The notes beneath the pieces are model-generated. The model did no database searches, was not told the origin of the DNA, and was given only the letters and a program-made list of their open reading frames with translations. 64,000 nucleotides of DNA from a virus (taxonomy: Duplodnaviria > Caudoviricetes), in IMG/VR virus record IMGVR_UViG_3300001598_000033, positions 90,413 to 154,412 of that record; one strand, written 5' to 3'. Below, piece after piece: positions 45,912 to 64,000 of this stretch (the first letter of the stretch is position 1; each line of letters begins with the position of its first letter). Position numbers and translations under genes: made by a program.

Positions 45912-46574
45912 ATGCAAAGTATTAAAGAAATAATAGCAATCTTGGAAAGCATTTTCGATAAGGCTAACGAAAAGTTCTACGACGGTAAGGTTATTAAACC
46001 AGTAATCACAGTACAAACAGCACGTAGAGGTGTGTTAGGATGGTGTTCTTGCAATCGTATCTGGAATAACGAAGAAACTAATGAAAAAGCTTATGAAATC
46101 AACATTGTTGCAGAACAACTAACACGTTCAATCAATGAAGTAGTTGGCACAATGTTACATGAAATGGTACATCTTTACAATCTCCAAAATGGCATCAAAG
46201 ATTGTACCGCTCAACAGTATCATAACAAACATTTTAAGAACTGTGCATTAGAACATGGATTGAAGTTAATATTCAATAGAGCAGATGTAAACAGAGGTTA
46301 CTCTTACACAGAATTAAATGATGAAGGATTAGCATTCGTTAAGGAAATGGGTCTAGAAGACTTCAAAATCAACAGAGGTATTAAGAAGGAAGGGGACTCA
46401 GAAACTCCAAAAGTGCCTAAGGCACCAAGACTTCCAGTTAATACAAAAACATACACATTCGAATGCGATTGCGGTATCAAAATCAAGCACAAGGATAAAG
46501 AATTAAATGTTACTTGTGGTTTATGTAAGACAAGATTTATGCTAAAGACCAAGTCTGGCAAGGTAGGTAAATAA
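45912..46574 (+). CDS. SprT-like zinc metalloprotease with C-terminal Zn ribbon
   Basis: TMLHEMVH, YHNKHF, CDCG...CGLC. Confidence 0.85.
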   Translation: MQSIKEIIAILESIFDKANEKFYDGKVIKPVITVQTARRGVLGWCSCNRIWNNEETNEKAYEINIVAEQLTRSINEVVGTMLHEMVHLYNLQNGIKDCTAQQYHNKHFKNCALEHGLKLIFNRADVNRGYSYTELNDEGLAFVKEMGLEDFKINRGIKKEGDSETPKVPKAPRLPVNTKTYTFECDCGIKIKHKDKELNVTCGLCKTRFMLKTKSGKVGK

Positions 46575-48184
46575 TGAAATTTGAAGCTATATGGCAAGAC
46601 AGAAGCCAATGGAAATACTTAGCGAGGTTAAATGATGGGGAGACTACTAAGGTGGTCGAAGTCCCTTCACAGTTTGAGTACTATGTACAACATAGCAAAG
46701 GTACTTACAAATATGTTTTAGACCAAAGTATTTCACTTCTTAAACGACTAGGCACATCTAAAGATGCTAAGGATCAGTTTGGTGTTGTCAACCCTATGTA
46801 CCGATATATTAGGGATAATTACTGGGGTAAGGGATATAACTTATCACCTAGGGTATGGTATCTTGATATTGAAACTAGAGCTGATGGTGCATTCCCAAAA
46901 CCAGAGTTAGCAGAAAAGCAAATTACATTAATCCAGATATTTGATAATAAGTTAGAGACAATGATTATATTTGGGTTGCGTGATTTTGAGATGGAGAAGG
47001 GATATGAATTACCTTATAAAGTAAAGTATATTAAATGTACTGATGAATTTGAACTTTTAAATAAATACCTTACAGTATTTAAAAAGTTAGACCCTTTAAT
47101 TATCCATGCATGGAATGGATTAGGTTTTGACTATCCATATATTCATAATAGATTAAAGAATTTGGGTATAGATCCGAATTTAATGTCTAACTATGGTAAG
47201 GTGGAGTATTCTGCAAACACAGATAATAAAACTCAAAAATTAATGTTTGATTTCACAGCACATGGCCATTACTATATTGATATGTTAGATGCATATAAGA
47301 ATTTCACATTTGATGTTAAATCGTCTTATGCATTGGATTTTATATCTAATATAGAGTTAGGTGAAGGTAAGGTAGACCATAGTGAGTTTACAACATTTGA
47401 TTCATTTTATACTGGTGAGTCATACCAAATATCTAATACATCTTATGATGATAAAGTGCGTGAGGAAATCCGTCAATTAAAAATAAAAGAACGTAATAAC
47501 GAAAATTATGATAACGATAGATTGTTAAAATTACTGCAATTTCAATTCGTATATTATGGTATTAAGGATGTGTACTTACTTAAACGATTGGATATGAAAA
47601 TGAATCTTACTAATATTATGTTAGGTATGGCTCAAAAAATGGGGTGTTTGGTAAGTGATACTATGGGTACCATTAAACCTTGGAGTACATATATTAACAA
47701 TGTATGTAATAGTAAGAACCTAGTATTTCCTCCTAGACAAGAGCATGAAAAATCTGATTTAAAAGGCGGGTTTGTGAGAAAACCTGTGAAGGGTAGACAT
47801 AAATGGGTTTTATCATTTGACTACAACTCGATGTACCCCATGAACATGGTTGGATTTAATATGAGTCCAGAAACTTATGTACCATTAGCAAAATGCCCTA
47901 GTGATTTAAGAGATTTAGTAATGAAATACTTTAATTCTCAAGATGAGGATAAAGCGCTAGATGTAAGTCAAGATGTGTGGGATAAAGTGACACCTTTACT
48001 ACAAAAGTATAATTATTCAATGGGTATAAATGGAGCATTATTTGATAAGTCTAAAGAAGGTATAATTCCTAATTTAGTATGGGATATATACACTCAAAGA
48101 AAGAAGGACAAGAAGATAATGTTAAAATATGAAAAACAAAAAGAGGTTATTCAAAAAATTATTTTAGCTAGAAAAAAATCTTAA
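46574..48184 (+). CDS. gp43: DNA polymerase B, N-terminal chain (gp43A: exonuclease, palm A, first finger helix)
   Basis: YLDIET (ExoI), WNGLGFDYPY (ExoII), YGIKDV (ExoIII), SFDYNSMYP (motif A), QRKKDK. Confidence 0.95.
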   Translation: MKFEAIWQDRSQWKYLARLNDGETTKVVEVPSQFEYYVQHSKGTYKYVLDQSISLLKRLGTSKDAKDQFGVVNPMYRYIRDNYWGKGYNLSPRVWYLDIETRADGAFPKPELAEKQITLIQIFDNKLETMIIFGLRDFEMEKGYELPYKVKYIKCTDEFELLNKYLTVFKKLDPLIIHAWNGLGFDYPYIHNRLKNLGIDPNLMSNYGKVEYSANTDNKTQKLMFDFTAHGHYYIDMLDAYKNFTFDVKSSYALDFISNIELGEGKVDHSEFTTFDSFYTGESYQISNTSYDDKVREEIRQLKIKERNNENYDNDRLLKLLQFQFVYYGIKDVYLLKRLDMKMNLTNIMLGMAQKMGCLVSDTMGTIKPWSTYINNVCNSKNLVFPPRQEHEKSDLKGGFVRKPVKGRHKWVLSFDYNSMYPMNMVGFNMSPETYVPLAKCPSDLRDLVMKYFNSQDEDKALDVSQDVWDKVTPLLQKYNYSMGINGALFDKSKEGIIPNLVWDIYTQRKKDKKIMLKYEKQKEVIQKIILARKKS

Positions 48185-48225
48185 GTTATTATATAATAAT
48201 AGAATAATAAAAGGAAATAATTTTT

Positions 48226-48903
48226 ATGATTGATTTAGAACCTGAAAAAATACTTGAACTTAGCGAGGAAGAGCTAAGTAAATATAGTATTGAAGATTTG
48301 GAGCATTTTTACGATATATGTCAGTATAATGAGGAATTTTACCATACACAACAATTAGTTGAAAAAATTATGATTAACTCATTATATGGTGCAGTAGGCA
48401 AGGAATTTTTCCCATTATTCAACCTCGATATGGCTAGAGCTATTACAGGTAATGGCCGTTACCTTGTTAAGAATACAGCTAATATGATTGAGGAAAAATT
48501 ACAGGAATTATTACCAACTGATTCTAAGTATGTGGTCTACGGTGATACTGACTCTGTGGTTTCCGATACCATCATAAATACCAGCAAGGGAAATATAACC
48601 ATAGGTGACTTGTACAATAATACTGATGGTAATATTGTTATAACTAAATCCAATAGCTATATAAAAACACCTAGCGAATATATTGAATCTTTAAGCTTAA
48701 ATAAAGACCTTAAAATTGAAAGTAAAAAGATAAAATATATTATGAAACACAAGGTTAATAAAAGAATGTTTAAAGTAAAATGTAATGGTAAAGAAGTTAC
48801 GATTACGGAAGATCATTCTATTATGGTTGTGAGAAATGGTATTTTAACTGAATGTAAACCAGCAGATATAATTAAAGGAGATAAGTTGATAATAAATGCC
48901 TAA
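48226..48903 (+). CDS. gp43: DNA polymerase middle fragment fused to a split-intein N-half (IntN 48553..48900, 116 aa)
   Basis: KIMINSLYGA (motif B), YGDTD then SVVSDT (block A) and ITEDHSIMV (block B). Confidence 0.92.
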   Translation: MIDLEPEKILELSEEELSKYSIEDLEHFYDICQYNEEFYHTQQLVEKIMINSLYGAVGKEFFPLFNLDMARAITGNGRYLVKNTANMIEEKLQELLPTDSKYVVYGDTDSVVSDTIINTSKGNITIGDLYNNTDGNIVITKSNSYIKTPSEYIESLSLNKDLKIESKKIKYIMKHKVNKRMFKVKCNGKEVTITEDHSIMVVRNGILTECKPADIIKGDKLIINA

Positions 48904-49774
48904 GAAGAATACTGTTTCTGGTAAATTTGCTAAAGATATAAAAGGATTTGAGAACCAGTTTATATTTTTAAAGAATTTATTTATTAAAAACAACTGGTCT
49001 TTGAGCTCTGTGCATAATACCATGAAACGATTCGTTGAAGGGTGGAATTACGACAATATTAAACCTGATGATATAGATCTAAACGCGTTCAGCGATAATA
49101 TAATGTTTATTAGGCAAAATAGATTTAATCGACAGAGTAAAAGTTATTTTATAGCCCAATATGGGGTGAATTTAGGTGAAATAAAATTCAGGAATCTTCA
49201 GAAAATACAATCATATACAAATTCTAAAGAATATAAAGGTATGGCTGATGACGAGTTTGCTGATTATAATAAATCCAGAGCCGTTACTTTAGATAATATG
49301 ATTATAAAATACGGTGAGGAAATCGGAACTAAAAAATTTAATGACTTTGTACAAAAGCATAATAAATTCTATTCGAAAATAGCTTCTGATTTCTTTACCA
49401 AATTAGATGAAGGAATTAAGGATTTTAAATTAACCACTAAATATGAACCAAAGACCTGTGAATTTTGGTTGGTTAATAACAATAAACTTTACTATTATGA
49501 TTTCTTAATAGAAGAATTAAATTATATAATTGAATTTAATGGTGATAGTTTTCACGCTAATCCTAAGTTGTTCAAGGAAGACGATCACCCAAATCCATAT
49601 GTTAAAAACTTAACAGCCAAAGAAATTTGGCTAAACGACCAGAAAAAGAATTCGATAGCTAAAGATGTTGGCTATGATATTGATGTTATCTGGGAATCCG
49701 ATTATAATAAAGATAAAAATTATTATATTAACTACTATATTAACAAGGTTAAAGAAAAATTAGGAAGGGTATGA
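48896..49774 (+). mobile_element. Free-standing Vsr-like homing endonuclease between the intein halves
   Basis: YG..LG..KF repeats, YSKIA..FF, YYYDF, IIEFNGDSFH, VIWESD; overlaps both flanking ORFs. Confidence 0.8.
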
Positions 49775-50700
49775 TGGAATTAGTGAACGAATTTGAAATT
49801 GAAGATTTAGGTATTCAAGAATTAGATGTTTATGATATAGAAGTGGAAGATAATCATAATTTCTTTGGAAATGATATATTAGTTCACAATTCCGGGTACT
49901 ATACGATTGCGCCATTTATGGATAAGGTAATTAAGGCTTATCCTAATTTATCAATGAATGATTATGTTGATAAAGCTGATGATTTTGAGAAGAAGGTTGT
50001 AGCCCCAATAATTGATAAATCGGTAGAAATAGCTTGTGGTAAATTAAATGCTTTGAGACCTGAGGTAATTGGAGCTAAACGTGAAATTATATCAGACTCG
50101 GTTATATTTGTTGAAAAGAAAAAGTATATAGCCCGTATCAGAGATTCCGAAGGTACAAGGTACCCTGAAGAAAAACCACATATGAAATTTATGGGAGTTG
50201 AATTAGCAAGGTCTCAAACAGCACCATTTACAAAGAGAAAGCTATTAGAATCCTTAGATATATTATTGGATAAGGATGAAAATGCATTAAGGGATTGGAT
50301 GGAAGAACAAAGAACCGAATATTATAACTCCGACATAGAGGATATAGCAACATATGGTTCAATAAGTGATATAAATTATAAACTGTCCGATAAGGGAATA
50401 CCTTATATGTGTAAAGGTGCAATATATCATAATAAATATATAACAGAACATAACTTACAAGGTAAATATAATCTATTTACTAGTGGTAGTAAAGGTCGTT
50501 GCATAATGATTAAACAACCAAACACGTTCGGACCTACCGATAGATTGATATACAACGATACTTCATTCGCCGAAATGTTTTTAGATTATATTGATTATGG
50601 TGAATCATTTGAAAAATTCTTTATACAACCGCTTCAAAACATGGCTAAAGCAATGGGGTATGAAATGGCGAAGAAGGTGGCAACTTATGACGAATGGTAA
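49771..50700 (+). CDS. gp43: Split-intein C-half (49771..49890, 40 aa) fused to the DNA polymerase C-terminal fragment
   Basis: VYDIEVEDNHNFFGNDILVHN/S (blocks F/G), then KREII, KKKY, KFMGVE..RS. Confidence 0.92.
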   Translation: MMELVNEFEIEDLGIQELDVYDIEVEDNHNFFGNDILVHNSGYYTIAPFMDKVIKAYPNLSMNDYVDKADDFEKKVVAPIIDKSVEIACGKLNALRPEVIGAKREIISDSVIFVEKKKYIARIRDSEGTRYPEEKPHMKFMGVELARSQTAPFTKRKLLESLDILLDKDENALRDWMEEQRTEYYNSDIEDIATYGSISDINYKLSDKGIPYMCKGAIYHNKYITEHNLQGKYNLFTSGSKGRCIMIKQPNTFGPTDRLIYNDTSFAEMFLDYIDYGESFEKFFIQPLQNMAKAMGYEMAKKVATYDEW

Positions 50701-54025: not shown

Positions 54026-54054
54026 ATATAATAAAATAATAAAAGAGTATATTT

Positions 54055-54588
54055 ATGGCTGGTAAAATAGATTTAAGCTTTGTTAAACCATATAGCCCGA
54101 AAGATTCCTTTAAAATTCTTAAAGGGATCGTTATGGATTATAGAAAAAATGCATCTAGTGGTAAGCCTGATTGGCGAAATATAAAACCAGGTAAGGTTAT
54201 ATTTTTTAAATACGATGCTAAGGATAAAAATCATACATTTGATAAATATCCTTTAACATTAGTACTTAAAACATCTAAATCATATATGTTGGGGTTAAAT
54301 TTCCACTGGTGTGAAGCACACGCAAAAATAAGACTTATTGAAAAAATACTAGCTATGAATACAGATTCAAAGGGTAGAATAAGAAACCCTTTGAAATTTA
54401 CTTATGAGATGCTTAAACCATATTTAACCAAAAAAGGTTATAGATTGTGTTTAAGATTATATATTAAAAAACGACTTAAATCCAACGCTATAATTATTGA
54501 TTCTAAGTATCTTTTAGATATTGCTAGAATGAGATTAACTAAATTCGTTGACCCTAACCCGCCTGCATATATTACTCGTCCGTATTAG
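54055..54588 (+). CDS. gp2: DNA end protector protein
   Basis: PGK..FFKYDAK.K...DKYPL, GLNFH, CLRLY; late promoter at 54021. Confidence 0.85.
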   Translation: MAGKIDLSFVKPYSPKDSFKILKGIVMDYRKNASSGKPDWRNIKPGKVIFFKYDAKDKNHTFDKYPLTLVLKTSKSYMLGLNFHWCEAHAKIRLIEKILAMNTDSKGRIRNPLKFTYEMLKPYLTKKGYRLCLRLYIKKRLKSNAIIIDSKYLLDIARMRLTKFVDPNPPAYITRPY

Positions 54589-54808
54589 AATTAGCCATTT
54601 CAGTTAATTCTATTATAGCAAGTAGTTTACTTGCAAATTTCTTTAAAACAGACACTCTAAAATCATTTTTCATATATGAGCTTAGTAGGTCTGTTTTTAA
54701 TTCGTTAAATAACATTTTTGGGTTATCATTATCTTCTAAAATCACTTCGCTTTTTCTTTTTATCTCATTTAAAATTTTTTCTTTAATATTATTATATATA
54801 ATATCCAT
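54572..54808 (-). CDS. Hypothetical protein
   Basis: Coupled (TAATG) to the upstream minus-strand ORF. Confidence 0.55.
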   Translation of the reverse strand: MDIIYNNIKEKILNEIKRKSEVILEDNDNPKMLFNELKTDLLSSYMKNDFRVSVLKKFASKLLAIIELTEMANSNTDE

Positions 54809-55401
54809 TATTTTATTTCTCCACCAACATTGTTAATATCAGATTGAACATCCCTGTCATTTGGATTTAAAACAATATCAGGTAAAGGTTCAGTTTCTTT
54901 AATATTCTTCCTTTCTTCAACAACATGGAATAATGCATCTTTAGTAGCACTTTGTAAAGAACCATATTCAGAAACATAAACATTAGCTCTATTCCAATCT
55001 AATTCAGATATAGCATCCTTTCTTAGTTGTACAGGTTTATCATTAAACCATTGGAAAAATACATTCATAGGTTTTTCATATGAACCTGGACGAGGCATTA
55101 TAGTACCATAATACAAGAATAAGTATATAGTGGTCTTATCATTAGACATTTCATCAATTTTCATATATCCTGAATTAACATCATCAAAGTATATACTTGT
55201 AATGTTCGGTATACTCCCACTACTATCTCTGTAATCCTTCCTTAGTGTCCACTTAATACCATTAACATAAATCTCCTTTGGAGGCTCCCACCCATTTATT
55301 TGTCTAAGGTTCATTGGGTATGTATTGAGTGATGTAGGCATTGATGCTACTGGGGCTTTTTGTAATGGCTGTTGGTAGTTCAAATAATTATTTGGATACA
55401 T
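54808..55401 (-). CDS. Hypothetical protein with a Y/Q/P/N-rich N-terminus
   Basis: SD AAGGAG; MYPNNYLNYQQPLQ. Confidence 0.7.
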   Translation of the reverse strand: MYPNNYLNYQQPLQKAPVASMPTSLNTYPMNLRQINGWEPPKEIYVNGIKWTLRKDYRDSSGSIPNITSIYFDDVNSGYMKIDEMSNDKTTIYLFLYYGTIMPRPGSYEKPMNVFFQWFNDKPVQLRKDAISELDWNRANVYVSEYGSLQSATKDALFHVVEERKNIKETEPLPDIVLNPNDRDVQSDINNVGGEIK

Positions 55402-55453
55402 CGTATCTCCTTAAAAATTTCAGTATGTATTTGTGACATCGTGTCACAAAATT

Positions 55454-55777
55454 TTAATTATTAGCGTTGTAGGTGATGATTGAAGCTTTTATTAAGTCCA
55501 TTAGTTTGCATCGGAATAATTCTTTATTACATTGAGATCTTGCATCAACAACTGATGATAATTGTTCCTTCAGTAATGCACAAAATTCTCTTTTAGTAAT
55601 ATGCTCATTCCATTCTTCAGGGTATTCACTTACATCAATTGCGCTAAAAATTGATTTATTCTTAGTATTATCAGATTTATCAGCAACCTTTGAGCTTACT
55701 GGACTTTTATCATTATTTTTGTTAACATCTTTAAAATCACTAATATGAATTTTATTGCGTTTGATTATTATACACAT
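55454..55777 (-). CDS. Hypothetical protein
   Basis: SD AAGGA. Confidence 0.65.
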   Translation of the reverse strand: MCIIIKRNKIHISDFKDVNKNNDKSPVSSKVADKSDNTKNKSIFSAIDVSEYPEEWNEHITKREFCALLKEQLSSVVDARSQCNKELFRCKLMDLIKASIITYNANN

Positions 55778-55863
55778 AAAAAAAATCCTTATTTTTATAT
55801 AATATATAATAAAAGTATTAATATTAATCTTTAAACTAACACTAATACTTTTACTATTACACT

Positions 55864-56565
55864 TTAAGCTGTCTTTAATTGGTCAATTAAGTAAGCTGTT
55901 TGAGCAGTTTGTGAAGCATTAAATGCTAATTGATTTTCAAGATTATTTGCTTTACATTTAGCATCTGCAAGCATACCTTGTAAACCACTAATATAGTTTT
56001 GTTGAATCAACTCTCTAGTCTTAGCACCTTCATCAGCGATTGCTGTTTTTAGTGAGCAACAACAACTTCCCATTTGAGTACCTAAGTCCTTAGTTGCTAA
56101 TCTTGACTCATAACCTTGATTTGAGATATTTGAGTTGATTACTGCTAAATCCTGACCTAAGTTAGTACCAACAGAGTTGATAGCAGTCTGTGTTGCGTAC
56201 TGACCTTGTAAATTAGCAACATTGTTAGCATTAAGAGCATTAGTTAAACCTACATAGGCACTTGAAATACCATTTGATAAGTTCATATTTACTCTGTAGT
56301 TAGCATCAGTTTGACGTGCGCCAATGTTTTCTAATTGATTTTGAATTGCCATATTATCGTCATGTAACATAGAAGTATCAAAACCATTTTGTGCCATAAC
56401 ACCAGCAGTTCCAATACCAGGTCCATAACCATAGCCACGATTACCCCAACCAAATCCACCATTACCAAACCAAGATCCAATAAATCCACCAAGGCCAGCA
56501 CCTAGTGCAGTATTACCACCACATATACCTAAGTTAGTACCTTCACCTAAATTAATATCTGTCAT
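55864..56565 (-). CDS. Gly-rich / coiled-coil protein with a CCC motif
   Basis: SD AAGGAG; GAGLGGFIGSWFGNGGFGWG...SCCCSLKTAI..EG.KTRELI. Confidence 0.75.
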   Translation of the reverse strand: MTDINLGEGTNLGICGGNTALGAGLGGFIGSWFGNGGFGWGNRGYGYGPGIGTAGVMAQNGFDTSMLHDDNMAIQNQLENIGARQTDANYRVNMNLSNGISSAYVGLTNALNANNVANLQGQYATQTAINSVGTNLGQDLAVINSNISNQGYESRLATKDLGTQMGSCCCSLKTAIADEGAKTRELIQQNYISGLQGMLADAKCKANNLENQLAFNASQTAQTAYLIDQLKTA

Positions 56566-56694
56566 ATTATTTCTCCTTTGTTAGTTTTGAATATAATTTT
56601 TTATATTCTATATTATTTAAAAATATTAATATCAGTATTATTAAAAAATAAATAAAAATAATAATATTTTAAAAAATTAAAGGTATTTAATATA

Positions 56695-57795
56695 ATGGAA
56701 AATTCTAAGTTAAAAGAAATTTTCACTATCGATACAATAACCCATTATAAAAATAATAAAGGGTTAATCACAAGTGAATTATTAGAAATATTAAGATCCC
56801 ATGGAAATGAAGGTAAACAAATAGCTTGGGATATACTTGATACAGAAAAATCTGAAGATAATTACTACTTAGATGCATATGGTGAAAAGATTTCATATGA
56901 AGGCGATAGAAACCTTAAAAAAGCATATACGGATATGAAGTTATCGTCTATTCATATTGAGGAATTAAGGAAATGCAAAGAAGATCTGTATTACTTCAAA
57001 GATAACTACGTAAAAATTAGAACAAAAGAAGGTGTTAATTTCCCTGAAACCCGTTCATATCAAATCGAATTTTTAAACAGCATCATGAGTGAAGAATCTG
57101 AAGGTACAGTATCATTACAAGGTCGACAATCAGGTAAGTCAGTAACAACCGCTATATATCTAGTATGGAAGTTTTTATTCACCGAAAATATTAACATCGG
57201 TATATGTGCCAATAAAGGTTCATTAGCAAGGGAATTTCTTAATAATGTTAAGATGATATTTGGCTTTTTACCAATGTGGATGAAAGTTGGTATTGTAGAA
57301 TGGAATAAAGGCTCAGTTGCCTCAGAATCGAATACCCGCATATTAACAGATGTTCCTAGTGAGAACTCATTTCGTGGTTTTAGTATTCATATATTAGTTA
57401 TAGATGAAGTTGCATTTATTCGAAATACAATATGGCGGGAATTTGCAGATTCTATATTCCCTTCTCAATCATCATTAACTTGGAAGAAAAATATTCTCAT
57501 AAGTACTCCTAACGGATTGAACCATTGGAAAACAATTTGTGATAAAGCTAAATCTGGTGAATCTGGTTATTCGTTCCATTTCGTAGATTGGAGAGACGTT
57601 CCAAGATTTGATAATAAAGGTAGACAATTAACTGCAGAAGAATTTAAAAACAAAATAATCAGGGAGAATGGTATAACCTTTTTCAACCAAAACTATGCAT
57701 GCATAGATGGAGATTCCGTAATAAATATTTATGATAAATTAAATGAATCATTTTCACAGGTTAAGGTAAAAGATTTATATGAAAAACTCACGTAA
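56695..57795 (+). CDS. gp17: Terminase large subunit, ATPase half, fused to a 31-aa atypical split-intein N-half (57700..57792)
   Basis: YFKDNY, RQSGKS (Walker A), LVIDEVAF (Walker B), STPNG; then CIDGDSVINI...KVKDLYEKLT stop. Confidence 0.93.
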   Translation: MENSKLKEIFTIDTITHYKNNKGLITSELLEILRSHGNEGKQIAWDILDTEKSEDNYYLDAYGEKISYEGDRNLKKAYTDMKLSSIHIEELRKCKEDLYYFKDNYVKIRTKEGVNFPETRSYQIEFLNSIMSEESEGTVSLQGRQSGKSVTTAIYLVWKFLFTENINIGICANKGSLAREFLNNVKMIFGFLPMWMKVGIVEWNKGSVASESNTRILTDVPSENSFRGFSIHILVIDEVAFIRNTIWREFADSIFPSQSSLTWKKNILISTPNGLNHWKTICDKAKSGESGYSFHFVDWRDVPRFDNKGRQLTAEEFKNKIIRENGITFFNQNYACIDGDSVINIYDKLNESFSQVKVKDLYEKLT

Positions 57796-59971
57796 GCAAA
57801 AATATATACATACAAGTCTGTTACATTATGGTGTTGATCACCCTATGCAAACAGATGAAATAAAAGAGAAAAGAAATAAAACATGCTTAGAAAAATACGG
57901 TTGTGAATCTTTTTCATCATCAGCTGATGGCCGTGCAATAATTTCTAAATCTCGAAAACTAGAGCAGGAATATGATGGTGATTTTTATGATTTTCAAACA
58001 ACTAAAAATTTTTGTTTAAATATTGATAACAAATATTTAAAATCTGGTGGATATAGGACATTAATCAAAGAAGATAAAAAAATGTATTTTTCTATATTAC
58101 ATCATGCAACTGAAGTTAGTAAGTGTAAAAATGTAACTTTTAGATCATATGTCTGTTTTCTACAAGGTAAAGTAAATGAGTATAAATGCCCAATATGTGG
58201 TGCTTACTATAAGTGGGATATTGCTGAGTTTGTATTTAAGATGCCTTCTACGGATATTCATTATAAGTATGATAGAACACTGGAGTATTATACGAAGATA
58301 TATGGTCGAGAATTAGGCCTTGAAAAATTTAATAATTATAATGAAAAAAGAAAAATAGGTACAGAAAAAAGTAAAAAACAAAAAGTTAATTCCAAGGAAT
58401 ATTATATCAAAAAATATGGCAAAGAACTTGGAGAGAAATTATTTATTGAAAAAACTAATAATAGGTTAAATAAATCAAAAAAGTCATATTCTAAGATATC
58501 TCAGAAATTTTTTAATGAGTTAGTGACAATTTGTGATTTGGATAAAACGAAATGCTATTATGCTACTAATAATTATGAAAAAACTTTTAAATTAACTGAA
58601 GAGTATAAAAATAAATTGCATCAAGATGTAATTAGAACTGATTTCATGATATCTAATAAAGTTATAGAATTTAACGGCACATACTGGCATAAAAACAGTA
58701 TTGAGAAAGATATATACAGAAAACAGTTTTTAGAGTCGCTTGGTATTGATGTATTAATTATATGGGACGATGAGGATTGGGATACAGCTTTACATAGGGC
58801 AAAAGAATTTTTAAATAATAATAGATATCAAATAGAAACATCAGACAAGTATTCTGATTTTATTGGAATTAGAAAAAAAGAAGTTTCAGAAGTTTTAAAG
58901 ATAACATTTGAAAATGGTGATATAACCGTCTCAAAAGATCACAGATTTGTTGTATATGATAAAGAAATTTTTGCACATTCGTTAAAAATTGGGGATGTAA
59001 TAATAACAAAGGATTTATTACCGACTAGAATTATTAATATAGAAACAATCAAAGAAAAAACAGACGTATATGATATCATTAACACTGATAATCATACTTA
59101 TATAGCTAATAATATAGTGAACCACAATTGTGAATTCATTGGTTCATCTACAACATTGGTTAATCCTGATGTATTATCTACATTAACAGCTAAACAACCG
59201 GAGCTGATATGGGATTCTAAATTAAAAATATACCAGGAACCTATACCTAAACATAAGTATATTTTGGATGTAGACCCTTCTAAGTGTTATGGTGATGCTT
59301 TCGCTGTGCATGTTGTTGATATTACTACTAAGCCTTTTATTCAAGTTGCTTCAGCACAGCTATTTGATGAAAATTTCCAGCTAATGCCATCTTTCTTGGA
59401 TGAATGGGGTAGAAGATATAACAATGCATTTATGATTATTGAAAATAATGAAGGTGCAGGTACCTTTGTTGCTATAATGTTGAAGAATGACTATGAATAT
59501 CCTAATTTATTTTATGATAAAACGTATAACAGAATGGCCCCATTAGGTAAGGTTAATAAAGAGCCAGGTTTTAGAACCACATCTAAATCAAGAAATTTAA
59601 TACTAGATACAATGAAGTTGTTTTTAGATAATAACTTACTGGTGATAAATGATAAAGCTACAATTGAGGAATTTTACACATTTATAGCCATAAACGGTAA
59701 GTATCAAGCTGATAATGGGTATCATGATGATATGATTATGTCATTAGCTTTAACATTCGCTCCTTTTTGTAATTCAAGAAACTTTGAGGATATGACTGCA
59801 ATTATAAGTACATTATACAATAAAGATGCAGATGAAGATGTGTTAATCGGTGATTATTTAACTATAGGTAATTTTGATGATTATTCAGATGAAAATGAAT
59901 ATAAAGAAGATAAGAAATGGGATTGGAATAGCTTAGGATGGAACTCTTATAATTTTGGATTTAAAAAGTAG
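57779..59971 (+). CDS. gp17: Fusion: Vsr-like endonuclease (~aa 1-345) + intein C-half (~58820..59128) + terminase nuclease domain (from Cys at 59129)
   Basis: CLEKYG, CPICG, YG.ELG..KF repeats, VIEFNGTYWH; VSKDHRF (block B), VYDII...NIVNHN/CEF; DVDPS, IENNEG, HDDMIMSL. Confidence 0.9.
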   Translation: MKNSRKQKYIHTSLLHYGVDHPMQTDEIKEKRNKTCLEKYGCESFSSSADGRAIISKSRKLEQEYDGDFYDFQTTKNFCLNIDNKYLKSGGYRTLIKEDKKMYFSILHHATEVSKCKNVTFRSYVCFLQGKVNEYKCPICGAYYKWDIAEFVFKMPSTDIHYKYDRTLEYYTKIYGRELGLEKFNNYNEKRKIGTEKSKKQKVNSKEYYIKKYGKELGEKLFIEKTNNRLNKSKKSYSKISQKFFNELVTICDLDKTKCYYATNNYEKTFKLTEEYKNKLHQDVIRTDFMISNKVIEFNGTYWHKNSIEKDIYRKQFLESLGIDVLIIWDDEDWDTALHRAKEFLNNNRYQIETSDKYSDFIGIRKKEVSEVLKITFENGDITVSKDHRFVVYDKEIFAHSLKIGDVIITKDLLPTRIINIETIKEKTDVYDIINTDNHTYIANNIVNHNCEFIGSSTTLVNPDVLSTLTAKQPELIWDSKLKIYQEPIPKHKYILDVDPSKCYGDAFAVHVVDITTKPFIQVASAQLFDENFQLMPSFLDEWGRRYNNAFMIIENNEGAGTFVAIMLKNDYEYPNLFYDKTYNRMAPLGKVNKEPGFRTTSKSRNLILDTMKLFLDNNLLVINDKATIEEFYTFIAINGKYQADNGYHDDMIMSLALTFAPFCNSRNFEDMTAIISTLYNKDADEDVLIGDYLTIGNFDDYSDENEYKEDKKWDWNSLGWNSYNFGFKK

Positions 59972-60020
59972 TATATTAATATTTTTTATTAATATTATTA
60001 TATATAAGAAACTGAAAATT

Positions 60021-60132
60021 TTTTCAAAAAAATTAAAAAAAAAGTGTTGACTTTTATTTTAAAGTATGCTATAATATATACATAAAGATAAGAAATTAAA
60101 GAGAATTAAAGAAAACTTAAGAGGTAATAGAT
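60021..60132 (+). promoter_or_regulatory. Early sigma70 promoter cassette
   Basis: TTGACT(60047)-17 nt-TATAAT(60070); three leader repeat units. Confidence 0.9.
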
Positions 60133-60561
60133 ATGCAAGCACTTGAAATAGTAGATATCACATCACAAGCTAAGGCTATGGTTACTAAGGGATGCCCTAA
60201 GATCCACGGTTATAGAATCGATGCAATGGAAAAGGTTGAGTTAGTGATTGATGCAGATCCTAACAAGTTCGTTACTTACCTACGCGTAACATTAAGCAAG
60301 GGTTGTAATGTAGATACAAATGTTACTCATGCAACTGCTAAGTACCTTAAGCACATTAAGCACTTACACAGCAAAGAACAAGTATCTTTTGAAGTTAGTG
60401 GTACATTTATATTAGCAAAGGTAATGTGTTTATTTACAGTGCCTGATGAAATGAAAGCGAAGTATGCTAAGAAAACTAAAATTGATTTAAAATCAATACT
60501 AAGAATCCTTGAAAAACATCCAGAAATTAAAGATACAATAATTAATGAATTAGGTGCTTAA
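60133..60561 (+). CDS. Hypothetical early protein
   Basis: First ORF behind the promoter. Confidence 0.7.
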   Translation: MQALEIVDITSQAKAMVTKGCPKIHGYRIDAMEKVELVIDADPNKFVTYLRVTLSKGCNVDTNVTHATAKYLKHIKHLHSKEQVSFEVSGTFILAKVMCLFTVPDEMKAKYAKKTKIDLKSILRILEKHPEIKDTIINELGA

Positions 60562-60610
60562 GATTCTTAAGTCAACATCAAGGTTTAGTTAAAATAATTA
60601 AGGAAATTAT

Positions 60611-60850
60611 ATGTTAAAGAAAGTTTTATTTGTAATGGTTGCTGTGTCTTGTTTTGTTACAGGTTGTACTGATAAGGTTGCTTATGTTGGATATTCTGAT
60701 CACGAATGTAAGTATGTTGAAATTAACGGTGAGCCTATGACTTGTGAAACTTTCGATAACGAATTTGAAGTTGTATGGGTTGATGCTTGCCTTATCCCTA
60801 CTGAAGAAGATGGTGTAGAAGCAAGCACCTCATTATGTAACAAGGATTAA
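60611..60850 (+). CDS. Small lipoprotein
   Basis: Signal peptide with lipobox VTGC; Cys-rich mature part. Confidence 0.7.
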   Translation: MLKKVLFVMVAVSCFVTGCTDKVAYVGYSDHECKYVEINGEPMTCETFDNEFEVVWVDACLIPTEEDGVEASTSLCNKD

Positions 60851-60851
60851 T

Positions 60852-61436
60852 ATGGATTATACAAAACTAATTAAATTGTATCCAAATGCTAATAAGGGGG
60901 TGTTACAACACCTTTCCTTAATAGACAAGGAAAATTGGACTACTACTAACAAATTACATTTTTTAGCGCAGTGTGCTCACGAAAGTGCTGGGTTTAGGGT
61001 TCTAAGAGAAAACTTAAATTATAGTGAGCAATCATTAGCTAGGGTCTTTGGCAAGTACTTTAGGGAGTTGAGTGTCAAGGACTATGCGCGCAAACCAGAT
61101 GCTATTGCAGATGTTGTGTATGCTAATAGGATGGGTAATGGTGATGTAAATAGTCATGATGGCTCTCGTTATAAAGGTAGAGGTTTGATACAATTAACCG
61201 GACGTAATAACTACACTAAATTTGGTCATCAAAACGACCCTGAATATTTAGAAACTCCTGAAGGTGCTGTTAAAAGTGCTATATGGTTCTGGATTGTTAA
61301 CGGTTTGCATCAATACAACCAATTTACAGATCTTAAAACCATTACAAAGAAGGTAAATGGCGGATTTAACGGACTAGAGGATAGAGAAAAGCAATTTAAT
61401 AATATTAAAACATTATTTGAAGTATTATCAGGTTAA
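60852..61436 (+). CDS. Glycoside hydrolase family 19 endolysin
   Basis: FLAQCAHESAGF, ENLNYS, YANRMGNG, YKGRGLIQLTG..NY, VNGG.NGL.DR. Confidence 0.92.
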   Translation: MDYTKLIKLYPNANKGVLQHLSLIDKENWTTTNKLHFLAQCAHESAGFRVLRENLNYSEQSLARVFGKYFRELSVKDYARKPDAIADVVYANRMGNGDVNSHDGSRYKGRGLIQLTGRNNYTKFGHQNDPEYLETPEGAVKSAIWFWIVNGLHQYNQFTDLKTITKKVNGGFNGLEDREKQFNNIKTLFEVLSG

Positions 61437-61520
61437 ATTCTGATAGATAATATGTAAATAAAAAATTTAATTATTAGATATTATATTATATAATATTAAT
61501 ATATTTTAAATTATAAGGAA

Positions 61521-62426
61521 ATGAATATGAGTCTAAGAGTTTCTGAAATTTTTTATAGTATTCAAGGTGAGGGTGTCAGAGCAGGCCATCCATCAGTTTT
61601 CATTCGTGTATTTGGTTGTAATTTTAGATGTCCTGGATTTGGTATGCCTAAGGGTGAATTAAGTACAGAACCGGATGAAATTGTTAATGAAGTGTTAGCG
61701 AATCCAAGTAAGTACCCAACTTACGAATCATTACCATTAGCAAAAACAGGTTGTGATAGTTATCCAAGTTGGCATCCAAAGTTAAAGGATTACAGCCCTG
61801 AGTTAACATTTGAACAAATTATTGAAAAAATAGAATCAGTGATTCCAGAAGATGTAAGGAAATCTCAAGTTGATATAGTGTTTACTGGTGGTGAACCTTT
61901 ATTAAGATGCAATCAAATTGCTATAAATGAATTATTAGTGTTTAATGAAGAATATTTTAAAGAATTTAGTTCATTCACATTTGAAACTAATGGATCGCAA
62001 CCATTATTAAGTGGTACAATGGATGTAATCAATAAATTATTAGTAAGGCCTTTAATTGTTAGTATGTCTCCTAAATTAAGTTGTTCAGGAGTTCCAAGAG
62101 CTAAAGCTATTAAACCAAATATTTTAACTGAAATGTTTGAATTCGTAGTAGGTGGATTTGTGTCAAATGCTTATTTAAAATTTGTAGTAAGCCCTGAAGA
62201 TATTGAAGCCCAGTTGGATGAAATAAATGATATTGTATTGAGGATTAAATATTTAATAAATGAATATACAGATGTGGAAATTCCTGTTTACCTAATGCCT
62301 GAAGGTGGTACTGAAGAACGATATAATGAAAATATGAAAAAGATTGCGACTATTGCGATGGATAAGGGATTTAGATTTTGTCCTAGATTACACGTAACAT
62401 TATTTGGTAATAGTTGGGCGTCATAA
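61521..62426 (+). CDS. queE: 7-carboxy-7-deazaguanine synthase (radical SAM)
   Basis: EIFYSIQGEG, GCNFRC...GCDS, FTGGEP, FETNG, SPKL, RLHV. Confidence 0.92.
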   Translation: MNMSLRVSEIFYSIQGEGVRAGHPSVFIRVFGCNFRCPGFGMPKGELSTEPDEIVNEVLANPSKYPTYESLPLAKTGCDSYPSWHPKLKDYSPELTFEQIIEKIESVIPEDVRKSQVDIVFTGGEPLLRCNQIAINELLVFNEEYFKEFSSFTFETNGSQPLLSGTMDVINKLLVRPLIVSMSPKLSCSGVPRAKAIKPNILTEMFEFVVGGFVSNAYLKFVVSPEDIEAQLDEINDIVLRIKYLINEYTDVEIPVYLMPEGGTEERYNENMKKIATIAMDKGFRFCPRLHVTLFGNSWAS

Positions 62427-62432
62427 CGGTTA

Positions 62433-62657
62433 GTGAGGGTTAATATGAATTTTGGTGAAGCATTAAGTGAATTAAAGAAAGGAAAGAAAATAACAACTAA
62501 GGGGTGGGGAGATGCGTATATCAGGCTTCATATACCCAACGATTTAGACACAATTAGTATACCTTACATTTATATGGTATTAAGTTTTAAAGAAAAAATT
62601 GTTTGGATGCCAACACATACTGAAATATTAGATGAAAATTGGAGTGTTGTTGAATGA
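62433..62657 (+). CDS. DUF2829 / Thoeris anti-defence Tad2-like protein
   Basis: MNFGEAL..LKKGKK....GW...PYIYM...W.P...EIL.ENW. Confidence 0.75.
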   Translation: MRVNMNFGEALSELKKGKKITTKGWGDAYIRLHIPNDLDTISIPYIYMVLSFKEKIVWMPTHTEILDENWSVVE

Positions 62658-63223
62658 TAATTGGATTAGCTGGACCTAAAAGGTCCGGTAAGGATTATGC
62701 TTATAATGTTATAAAGAAATATTTTCCATATGTTGAAAGAACTGCTTTCGCAGATCCTATTAAAGAAAAAATATGCAATATATTTAATATTAATAGGGAT
62801 GAACTGGAAAATTTAAAAACCCAAGTTGATTTTTGTATAAAAAATAAAGATAATAGTTATGGTTCATTTACAGGTAGGGATTTAATTGTTGGCATTGGTA
62901 CTTTAATGCGTAGTTATAACGATCATCAGTTTGAAGATTATGTAAAGGAAATAGTAGAATCAAATCCTAATAAACTTTACATATGTACCGATGTAAGGTA
63001 CCAATCGGAAGTAGACCTTATACATTCTTGTCTAGGGGGTGTGGTAGTACAAATACAACGTGATGGGGTTGAATATGAAGGAACTGAAACAGAAAGTGGA
63101 ATTAAAGGCTATGACTATATAATTAAAAACGATTCTGATTACGAAAAAAATTTAATTACATTAGTAGGCAGAATCTTATTAGATTCATTAAACAAAGTAA
63201 ATAAAGAATTAAAGGAATTATAA
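62654..63223 (+). CDS. Deoxynucleoside monophosphate kinase (T4 gp1-like)
   Basis: IIGLAGPKRSGKD, AFADPIK, GT..R, TDVRY..E. Confidence 0.88.
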   Translation: MIIGLAGPKRSGKDYAYNVIKKYFPYVERTAFADPIKEKICNIFNINRDELENLKTQVDFCIKNKDNSYGSFTGRDLIVGIGTLMRSYNDHQFEDYVKEIVESNPNKLYICTDVRYQSEVDLIHSCLGGVVVQIQRDGVEYEGTETESGIKGYDYIIKNDSDYEKNLITLVGRILLDSLNKVNKELKEL

Positions 63224-63787
63224 ATGTATACAGTAGAGAAAACTTTTGAATTTGATTTAGCACATAGAATCCATAACCAGAATTTGGATGGTGATTTTAC
63301 AGAAGGTAAGCCAGTATTAAAGTGCAGAAGATTACATGGCCACACGGCACAATTAAAGGTAAAGCTAGGTTCTGATAAACTAGTGGATGATATGGTACTT
63401 GATTATAATGAAATTGGGTTTGTCAAGAATATGATTAATGATATTTTAGACCATCGTACATTGTTAAGCATAACAGATCCTTTATTTAATAAGGTTGTAA
63501 AGAAAATTCATGATGAATACAGTCAATTTGAATTCAGCACAATTGACACTGGCTGGGATTCATTAAAGGTAAACATCAGTCATATTAGCGATCAGGATAT
63601 TAGAGAGTTTTTAGATGCATTTATTTTAGTACCATTTACTACAAGTTCGGAAAATATATCTAAATGGGTTGCAGACATTGTTAGTAAGAAAATTGAATTA
63701 TATAATTCTAAAAATGATACTAATGTAAAACTTGTAAGTGTATCATATAAGGAAACACCTAAATCAGAAGCTGTATACACAGCATAG
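63224..63787 (+). CDS. queD: 6-carboxy-5,6,7,8-tetrahydropterin synthase
   Basis: FDLAHR, CRRLHGH, MVLDY, LDH, TSSENI, ETPKS. Confidence 0.92.
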   Translation: MYTVEKTFEFDLAHRIHNQNLDGDFTEGKPVLKCRRLHGHTAQLKVKLGSDKLVDDMVLDYNEIGFVKNMINDILDHRTLLSITDPLFNKVVKKIHDEYSQFEFSTIDTGWDSLKVNISHISDQDIREFLDAFILVPFTTSSENISKWVADIVSKKIELYNSKNDTNVKLVSVSYKETPKSEAVYTA

Positions 63788-63840
63788 TAGAAATTTAATT
63801 CAATTGCAGTCGTTACTTCGTATATAAAAAAATTTTAATT

Positions 63841-63909
63841 TTTTGAAAAAATTTTGAAAAAAGTGTTGACTTTTATTTTAAAGTATGCTATAATATATAC
63901 ATAAAGATA
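63841..63909 (+). promoter_or_regulatory. Early sigma70 promoter cassette
   Basis: TTGACT(63866)-17 nt-TATAAT(63889). Confidence 0.9.
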
Positions 63910-63997
63910 AGAAATTAAAGAGAAATTAAAGAGAAATTAAAGAGAAATTAAAGAGAAATTAAAGAGAAATTAAAGAGAAATTAAAGAGAAATTAAAG
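63910..63997 (+). repeat. Tandem array of 8 perfect AGAAATTAAAG units in the promoter's 5' leader
   Basis: Counted directly; followed by AGG, the start of the cassette RBS. Confidence 0.9.
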
Positions 63998-64000
63998 AGG

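Follow-up and report, generated by a model that had tools for sequence, protein, structure and literature searches.

In the virus record IMGVR_UViG_3300001598_000033 of the IMG/VR database, which comprises 154,412 nucleotides (nt) and is 84% complete, the terminase gene terL is distributed over two overlapping open reading frames (ORFs). We consider it quite probable that this terL gene of a T4-like phage is interrupted at the hinge between the ATPase and the nuclease domain by an atypically split intein of class 1, and that trans-splicing yields TerL together with a fused homing endonuclease. The stretch analysed here, termed the window, is 64,000 nt long. Atypical splitting of the TerL intein, with a free-standing endonuclease gene placed between the two halves, has been known since 2009; what is new is the in-frame fusion of the endonuclease to the C-terminal half of the intein (IntC), which sequence comparisons show to be conserved in about a dozen phage loci.

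Architecture of the interrupted terL gene

The first of the two ORFs, ORF1, codes for the TerL ATPase domain followed by the N-terminal half of the intein (IntN) and closes with the sequence ...NQNYA/CIDGDS...DLYEKLT and a stop codon (Table 1; the slash marks the junction of extein and intein). ORF2 starts 17 nt upstream of this stop codon, and its ATG arises from the TAT-GAA (Tyr-Glu) codons of IntN. The ORF2 protein is composed of a 346-residue endonuclease, an IntC of 104 amino acids (aa), the sequence Cys451-Glu-Phe, and the TerL nuclease domain, in this order. The ATPase domain is recognized as Terminase_6N by Pfam (E value 5.5e-18) and by the terminase family PHROG 5989 (E 2.3e-63), and no second Terminase_6N match is present elsewhere in the 154-kb record. 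The C-extein matches the gp17 nuclease domains of T4 and RB49 (PDB 3c6a, 3cpe) with E values of 5e-15 to 5e-30 as well as PHROG 24361 (E 3.7e-35), and its alignment with T4 gp17 begins at the hinge. Pfam domains detected in ORF2 are DUF7487, a weak DUF559/MTES_1575 match (residues 285-332), and Terminase_6C. Joining of the two exteins gives a predicted spliced TerL of 335 + 280 = 615 aa.

An earlier note on this DNA, which had been prepared from the sequence without database searches, had described the same arrangement, and its coordinates, the 17-nt overlap, the residue strings, and the 615-aa product all proved correct on re-analysis of the ORFs. The same applies to its statement that no Met occurs between the endonuclease motif and the intein: in the window, no in-frame ATG, GTG, or TTG codon is found between the nuclease motif, which ends at residue 304, and block B of the intein (His388). 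An internal start for a separate IntC-TerL-C protein is absent from the window and from 5 of 11 relatives, and the stretch between endonuclease and IntC in these loci is also devoid of stop codons; the candidate start codons of the remaining relatives occupy non-homologous positions and are not conserved, and a start of this kind was rejected. Sites resembling sigma-70 promoters or terminators occur between endonuclease and IntC at background level only, and the T4 late-promoter word TATAAATA is absent from positions 54029-64000 and not enriched in the window.

Table 1 Features of the interrupted terL locus and of a related endonuclease gene (window coordinates)
Feature	Position	Strand	Description
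ORF1	56695..57795	+	366 aa; TerL ATPase domain and IntN
TerL N-extein, gp17-type terminase ATPase domain	56695..57699	+	335 aa, ending ...NQNYA
IntN	57700..57795	+	31 aa (57700-57792), Cys1, block A CIDGDS, end DLYEKLT; stop codon 57793-57795
ORF1/ORF2 overlap	57779..57795	+	17 nt; ORF2 ATG 57779-57781; A5 run 57782-57786 immediately after the ATG
ORF2	57779..59971	+	730 aa; +1 frame relative to ORF1
Homing endonuclease domain (predicted)	57779..58816	+	ORF2 residues 1-346; Pfam DUF7487, EDxHD/Vsr-like core
IntC	58817..59128	+	ORF2 residues 347-450, 104 aa, ending NIVNHN; blocks B, F, G
TerL C-extein	59129..59971	+	Cys+1 (CEF...) and RNase H-like nuclease domain, 280 aa plus stop codon
Paralogous free-standing endonuclease	48896..49774	+	292 aa, flanked by the two parts of the canonically split DNA polymerase intein

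The split intein

The landmarks of IntC are block B with the sequence SKDH (His388), block F with VYD (Asp432), and block G with His449-Asn450, followed by Cys451 in the +1 position. Together with Cys1 of IntN, the window thus has the complete residue set of class 1 inteins (Cys/Ser1, Thr/Ser-x-x-His in block B, Asp of block F, His-Asn at the C-terminus, and the +1 nucleophile). Across 11 ORF2 homologues, His of block B, Asp of block F, the final His-Asn pair, and Cys+1 do not vary, and Cys1 is invariant in 8 IntN sequences, the IntN of the window aligning with those of seven relatives.

When scanned alone, IntC matches the Pfam family Intein_splicing with 36.4 bits (cut-off 35.8). It is similar to CatC of the consensus atypically split TerL intein (PDB 6dsl_B), with E values of 1.6e-6 for the single sequence and 6e-14 for the profile, and it also matches the gp41-1 intein. 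A Foldseek search with the AlphaFold model of ORF2 residues 1-460, which has a predicted local distance difference test (pLDDT) value of 78.7, returned 6qaz first and then 6dsl_B (TMt 0.75). The top PDB match of the IntN profile is CatN (6dsl_A), with an E value of 0.1 that is weak because the peptide is so short. If IntN and IntC are joined without the endonuclease, the resulting 135-aa sequence can be aligned over its full length with natural mini-inteins of this family that are contiguous (L004, L006, L036), and the endonuclease is located in the loop after the DLYEKL helix and before block B, i.e., between blocks A and B.

Complex prediction for IntC (residues 340-475) and IntN with 10 extein residues gave a value of 0.70, with 0.01 as the highest control value; at least 79% of the contacts were shared between runs, and the pLDDT of the partner was 72. 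IntN is predicted to contact the first strand of IntC as well as blocks F and G. The mark applied was passed by 58 of 80 solved complexes and by 2 of 110 mismatched pairs, and such a pass may reflect likeness to solved split-intein complexes and is not proof of binding. The assignment of the intein to the atypically split TerL inteins of the AceL/GOS/Cat-TerL family, which had been made in the earlier note, is supported by the matches to CatC and CatN and by the Foldseek result; the alignment to Cat-TerL and the scan with an intein hidden Markov model had been proposed there as checks. The placement of the endonuclease exactly at the atypical split point and its fusion to IntC, likewise claimed in that note, agree with the alignments to homologues and to the contiguous mini-inteins.

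The endonuclease domain and its family

The endonuclease is made up of a DUF7487 repeat (residues 4-48), three conserved cysteine residues (C116, C137, C140), helical YG-repeat modules, and an EDxHD/Vsr-like nuclease core at approximately residues 236-346, which contains D288, E297, H304, and D311. DUF7487 was detected with 29-31 bits (cut-off 27). A profile of the core built from 23 sequences matched I-Bth0305I (PDB 3r3p) with an E value of 4.6e-8, 3hrl with 0.004, and Vsr with 0.26. Asp288, Glu297, Gly300, and His304 are invariant in the 23 homologues, D311 is conserved in at least 90% of them, and DUF559 is matched by 16. The linker leading into IntC is conserved as well (F344, N346, and R349, over the range of 43-98% identity). 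By these features, the core can be assigned to the Vsr fold and the domain is predicted to be an EDxHD/Vsr-like homing endonuclease.

The window copy (57779-57930) is devoid of one 23-aa DUF7487 repeat that is found in most relatives, e.g., P0004 (alignment columns 52-74), and the length of its DNA-binding region may be altered accordingly. The window also encodes the paralogous endonuclease listed in Table 1, which shares 28% identity with the terL-associated enzyme over about 200 aa (pairwise E 0.003, profile E 7.8e-14). Its surroundings, the DNA polymerase gene (46574-50700), consist of three ORFs, the last two of which are linked by a canonically split intein, and the EDxHD endonuclease gene overlaps both of its neighbours; at the break between the first two pieces (48184/48226), no intein is present. 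A third endonuclease of the family, encoded by L093 (1889-3532; own genome C1:8388-10031), is free-standing and located just downstream of nrdD. It comprises 547 aa, with five tandem DUF7487 repeats of the KQTNLERYGCEY type and, at the C-terminus, about 170 additional aa that form a domain without known function.

Authenticity of the two-ORF layout

Deletion of one A from the A5 run that follows the ORF2 start codon would merge the two frames, and a sequencing error at this position, behind which the true gene would be one ORF for a cis-splicing intein with an in-frame endonuclease, had been named in the earlier note as an outcome that would overturn its reading. This explanation is scarcely credible, since the two-ORF layout recurs in 12 loci with 43-98% aa identity, of which the 11 besides the window stem from independent samples. 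The 12 loci are those of the window, the cultured Vibrio phage Va1, seven metagenomic contigs, and three IMG/VR contigs, and the related phages that had been suggested for a search thus do carry the same fusion. In all 12 loci, the upstream ORF closes with an IntN of 27-32 aa and a stop codon, and ORF2 begins 8-29 nt before that stop; the junction sequences vary, and the A-run is confined to the window. The closest fetched contig, L003 (77% identical), has GAGAAGC where the window has GAAAAAC, and both frames are kept; in L006, the two ORFs are offset differently. In Vibrio phage Va1 (MK387337), whose genes Va1_137 and Va1_136 have 45% protein identity to those of the window, the overlap is 29 nt and no homopolymer is present at the junction. 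A search of 5.8 billion proteins retrieved ten clusters of 584-754 aa that span endonuclease and IntC at 43-98% identity, and neither there nor among the top 150 representatives of a second search at the 50%-identity level was a cis form with a length of about 1,100 aa detected. By comparative sequence evidence, the two-ORF layout is thus confirmed as real. The frame offset itself, +1 in 11 of the 12 loci, and the A-rich overlap of the window would also be compatible with a programmed +1 ribosomal frameshift or transcriptional slippage, which would create an ATPase-IntN-endonuclease-IntC-nuclease precursor for cis splicing. We regard this as highly improbable: a slippery sequence is not conserved, the overlaps being of unrelated sequence, every ORF2 has its own ATG, and the offset is +2 in L006. 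The bias towards +1 is explained by the fact that the ATG is built in most loci from the TAT-GAx codons of the conserved IntN motif (Asp/Glu)-Leu-Tyr-(Glu/Asp). Moreover, the RNA around the junction (57725-57825) is predicted to fold no better than shuffled sequences (z 0.32). By the same result, an RNA hairpin over the ribosome-binding region and start codon of ORF2, as known for some phage endonuclease genes, was rejected.

Evidence for a mobile element at a precise terL site

Vibrio phage phiKT1024 possesses an uninterrupted TerL with the empty site RQNFE/CNFLGSS. If the exteins of Va1 are joined in silico, the resulting sequence of 1,899 nt is equal in length to that for the phiKT1024 TerL and aligns with it gap-free, with 94% identity at the nt and 98% at the aa level. 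An excess of substitutions around the insertion site, which was looked for as a sign of target-site immunity or co-conversion, is not observed between the two phages, 27-30 of 30 positions being identical per 30-nt bin throughout. A third allele is represented by P0180, in which a Va1-like TerL carries a contiguous mini-intein at the same site. Since the record contains a single terminase ATPase match, the split terL gene, as far as can be judged from the genome sequence, must yield the working terminase of the window genome.

Layouts among relatives

The layout census comprised the best 80 of 192 IMG/VR relatives, 76 of which contain an IntC of the atypical type. In about 70 relatives IntC stands alone, with a start codon at or a few codons before IntC, and in about 15 of these an endonuclease ORF of the same family is located directly upstream, either overlapping by 7-28 nt or in the same frame with only a stop codon in between (L025, L064, L081). 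Endonuclease-IntC fusions and contiguous mini-inteins are present in three relatives each (L013, L014, L018 and L036, L037, L075, respectively). Two relatives, L017 (6-3679) and L019 (2-2880), show the mirror layout, in which the TerL ATPase domain, IntN, and an EDxHD endonuclease form one ORF and IntC-TerL-C is encoded separately with a 7-nt overlap; the closest endonuclease relative of these mirror forms is the free-standing L027. An exhaustive search of 1.84 billion representatives at the 50%-identity level showed that about 10 of the top 150 clusters match the endonuclease core and IntC without interruption. A contiguous cis intein with an in-frame EDxHD endonuclease was sought and found neither among the close homologues nor among the top 150 representatives; the long representative matches P0130, P0134, P0195, and P0136 proved to be TerLs in which several contiguous mini-inteins or a LAGLIDADG intein are present.

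In an unrooted tree built from endonuclease cores, 10 of the fused sequences cluster together (support 93/87), and this cluster is nested in a well-supported set (97/99) that also contains free-standing and IntN-fused forms. The approximately unbiased test does not reject one common origin for all fusions other than L018 (p 0.31). Since the fused sequences group in this way, the endonuclease-IntC fusion is, by its phylogeny, old and stable; being unrooted, the tree fits a change in either direction. The proposal of the earlier note that the fusion may be an intermediate in the origin of atypical splits gains from the existence of the mirror form and of contiguous mini-inteins.

Several further arrangements were encountered in these relatives. 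The metagenomic terL gene of L004 (800-6259) is interrupted by three inteins, all of this family: an atypically split intein with a free-standing T5orf172/GIY-YIG-like gene, a contiguous mini-intein only 8 residues beyond it, and a split intein with fused endonuclease-IntC. P0130 and P0134 are TerLs carrying 3-4 contiguous mini-inteins. A DnaB-like helicase and a clamp-loader-like ATPase likewise contain long, atypical-type IntCs (L025 2335-4581, L064 2080-4395, and L081); in these loci, the EDxHD gene is in frame with IntC and the single stop codon between them leaves these loci one substitution from fusion. In one sub-clade (L006 1597-3341, L010 2506-2820, and L013 1412-1735), the N-extein has a second break, and the ORF bearing IntN is a mere 103-107 aa long, approximately; the 478-aa piece upstream of it in L006 closes without an intein motif in a 4-nt ATGA overlap, and in L010 the ATPase part is not adjacent to the ORF bearing IntN.

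Relation to known systems

A terminase intein of the GOS data "fractured at an unusual point", with a C-part of 122 aa, has been described together with free-standing Vsr-like or GIY-YIG genes that lie between split-intein halves and overlap the downstream IntC ORF by 6-69 bp (Dassa 2009, PMC2677866). The AceL-, GOS-, and (engineered) Cat-TerL inteins were later developed as tools, and the lengths of the IntN and IntC of the window agree with those tabulated for them (PMC11766414). The window intein shares with them the gp17-type TerL host, Cys+1, a short IntN (25-37 aa, 31 in the window) comprising block A only, an IntC of about 104-122 aa with blocks B, F, and G, and direct sequence and fold homology to CatC/CatN (PDB 6dsl). 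The published IntCs open their own ORFs, whereas in the window and about a dozen relatives IntC runs in frame from the endonuclease. The fractured genes (Dassa 2009) resemble the window locus in that an EDxHD/Vsr-like or GIY-YIG gene with overlapping ORF ends is located between the split halves, but they consist of three ORFs rather than two, and the overlaps reported there are not fusions; in the window the only break is at the 5' boundary of the endonuclease. Textbook examples of fractured genes are the DNA polymerase locus of the window (48226-50700) and terL of Providencia phage PSTRCR_127. The latter (L002, MW358927, 1169-4101), a cultured phage of the Straboviridae, has an ATPase-IntN ORF, a free SegE-like GIY-YIG gene, and an IntC-nuclease ORF, two of which are annotated as hypothetical protein; Yersinia phage MHG19 and Serratia phage 92A1 look similar.

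The EDxHD family was defined as intron-borne, free-standing, or located between split inteins (Taylor et al. 2011, PMC3239194). Its prototype I-Bth0305I (PDB 3r3p) is phage-borne like the window enzyme and has the same C-terminal Vsr-like core, the IE-x-NG-x-YW motif region, and modular N-terminal DNA-binding repeats, but it belongs to a group I intron and is a separate protein, whereas the window enzyme is attached to an intein half and, prior to splicing, to the TerL nuclease domain. Classical bifunctional inteins such as PI-SceI carry a LAGLIDADG or HNH endonuclease between blocks B and F within one ORF; the EDxHD endonuclease of the window is placed between blocks A and B and shares its reading frame with one flank only, the stop codon after IntN being present in all 12 loci. 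After splicing, endonuclease-IntC with bound IntN would nevertheless resemble a nicked bifunctional intein. Vsr-like endonucleases have been known with inteins only in the split context of Dassa (2009) or on the antisense strand, and the non-canonical actinophage inteins studied have them antisense or free-standing only, unlike the fusion in the window (Gosselin et al., bioRxiv 10.1101/2025.01.02.630785). According to a proposal in the same work, endonuclease genes that are at first free-standing insert into inteins, and subsequent indels create a common reading frame. A description of an in-frame endonuclease-IntC fusion was not found in the searchable full-text literature, in line with the earlier note, to whose author no such description was known, and the fused form has gone unremarked in a GenBank phage (Va1).

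Proposed mechanism and alternatives

From the anatomy, the homologies, the conservation of catalytic residues, and the presence/absence polymorphism described above, we infer a sequence of splicing, DNA cleavage, and homing. ORF1 and ORF2 are probably co-transcribed, and their translation is probably coupled via the overlap. ORF1 would give rise to ATPase-IntN, and ORF2 to endonuclease-IntC-TerL nuclease as a single polypeptide. The short IntN would then dock into the near-complete IntC to form the HINT fold, and trans-splicing would proceed via Cys1, His of block B, Asp of block F, His-Asn of block G, and Cys+1. The expected products are the 615-aa TerL with a ...NYA-CEF... junction and an endonuclease-IntC by-product of about 450 aa that still holds the IntN peptide. 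The endonuclease would cut intein-less terL alleles of co-infecting phages, whereupon the entire element would be copied in. IntC-TerL-C has no start other than that of the endonuclease ORF; the endonuclease would hence be made one-for-one with the terminase, packaging would be coupled to nuclease expression, as put forward in the earlier note, and the nuclease gene would have no clean deletion route short of a loss of packaging.

Some points weigh against this mechanism. The 346-aa N-terminal passenger could slow the docking of IntN to IntC, and free IntC-TerL-C could still be formed by non-canonical internal initiation or proteolysis; in Va1, an in-frame GTG is located just upstream of IntC. 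The record being incomplete, a second terL might lie in the missing part of the genome, and the arrangement of endonuclease and IntC in the AlphaFold model is unreliable (predicted template modelling score 0.38). The endonuclease might alternatively be a decaying remnant that merely serves as translated leader for IntC-TerL-C and no longer promotes homing, the fusion being a neutral accident. The lack of the 23-aa DUF7487 repeat, which is present in the 77% identical relative, would fit this assumption, but it is rendered improbable by the conservation of the catalytic D, E, and H, of the entire core, and of the linker into IntC over the whole identity range, by the grouping of the fused endonucleases in nearly one old lineage, and by the presence of the element in Va1 and its absence in phiKT1024 at 94% nt identity, which suggests a recent gain or loss. 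Very improbable, finally, is an assembly of the two fragments via the intein halves without splicing, i.e., a non-covalent two-chain terminase. Nothing speaks specifically for it; split-intein halves bind tightly, and the complex prediction reports on docking only. The invariance of all splicing residues from Cys1 to Cys+1 and the splicing of the related AceL, GOS, and Cat-TerL inteins in vitro (PMC11766414) argue against it, and an endonuclease-intein lump of 450 aa at the ATPase-nuclease hinge would probably hinder the motor.

A further idea, which we put forward only tentatively and do not rate as likely, goes beyond trans-splicing and homing as outlined above. Endonuclease-IntC could itself be the selected unit, with the IntN-completed HINT domain aiding binding of the DNA target or gating the nuclease so that homing occurs only after late TerL splicing, and the forms at homologous TerL sites could represent a stepwise series. 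These forms are the empty site, the contiguous mini-intein, the three-ORF fractured gene, the IntN-endonuclease fusion, and the endonuclease-IntC fusion.

Significance

In models of intein evolution, mini-inteins are invaded by free-standing homing endonuclease genes that come into frame later (Dassa 2009; Gosselin et al. 2025). One-sided fusions are the intermediates to be expected, and none has been reported in the searchable literature. Among the window locus and its relatives, such fusions exist for either flank of the endonuclease, and the phage gene concerned is essential; the presence of the fused form in the cultured Vibrio phage Va1 makes the idea directly testable. If splicing is confirmed, a 40-kDa N-terminal cargo on the IntC of an atypically split intein would be tolerated in nature. 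About a dozen divergent pairs of an approximately 31-aa IntN and its IntC are also added to the small AceL/GOS/Cat-TerL tool family. If the stepwise series holds true, it would be the first natural one leading from a free-standing endonuclease gene to an intein domain at a non-canonical position, or the reverse. Because the endonuclease ORF carries the translation start of the C-terminal half of the terminase, the selfish nuclease would be hard to delete, and the locus would represent a simple "addiction" arrangement.

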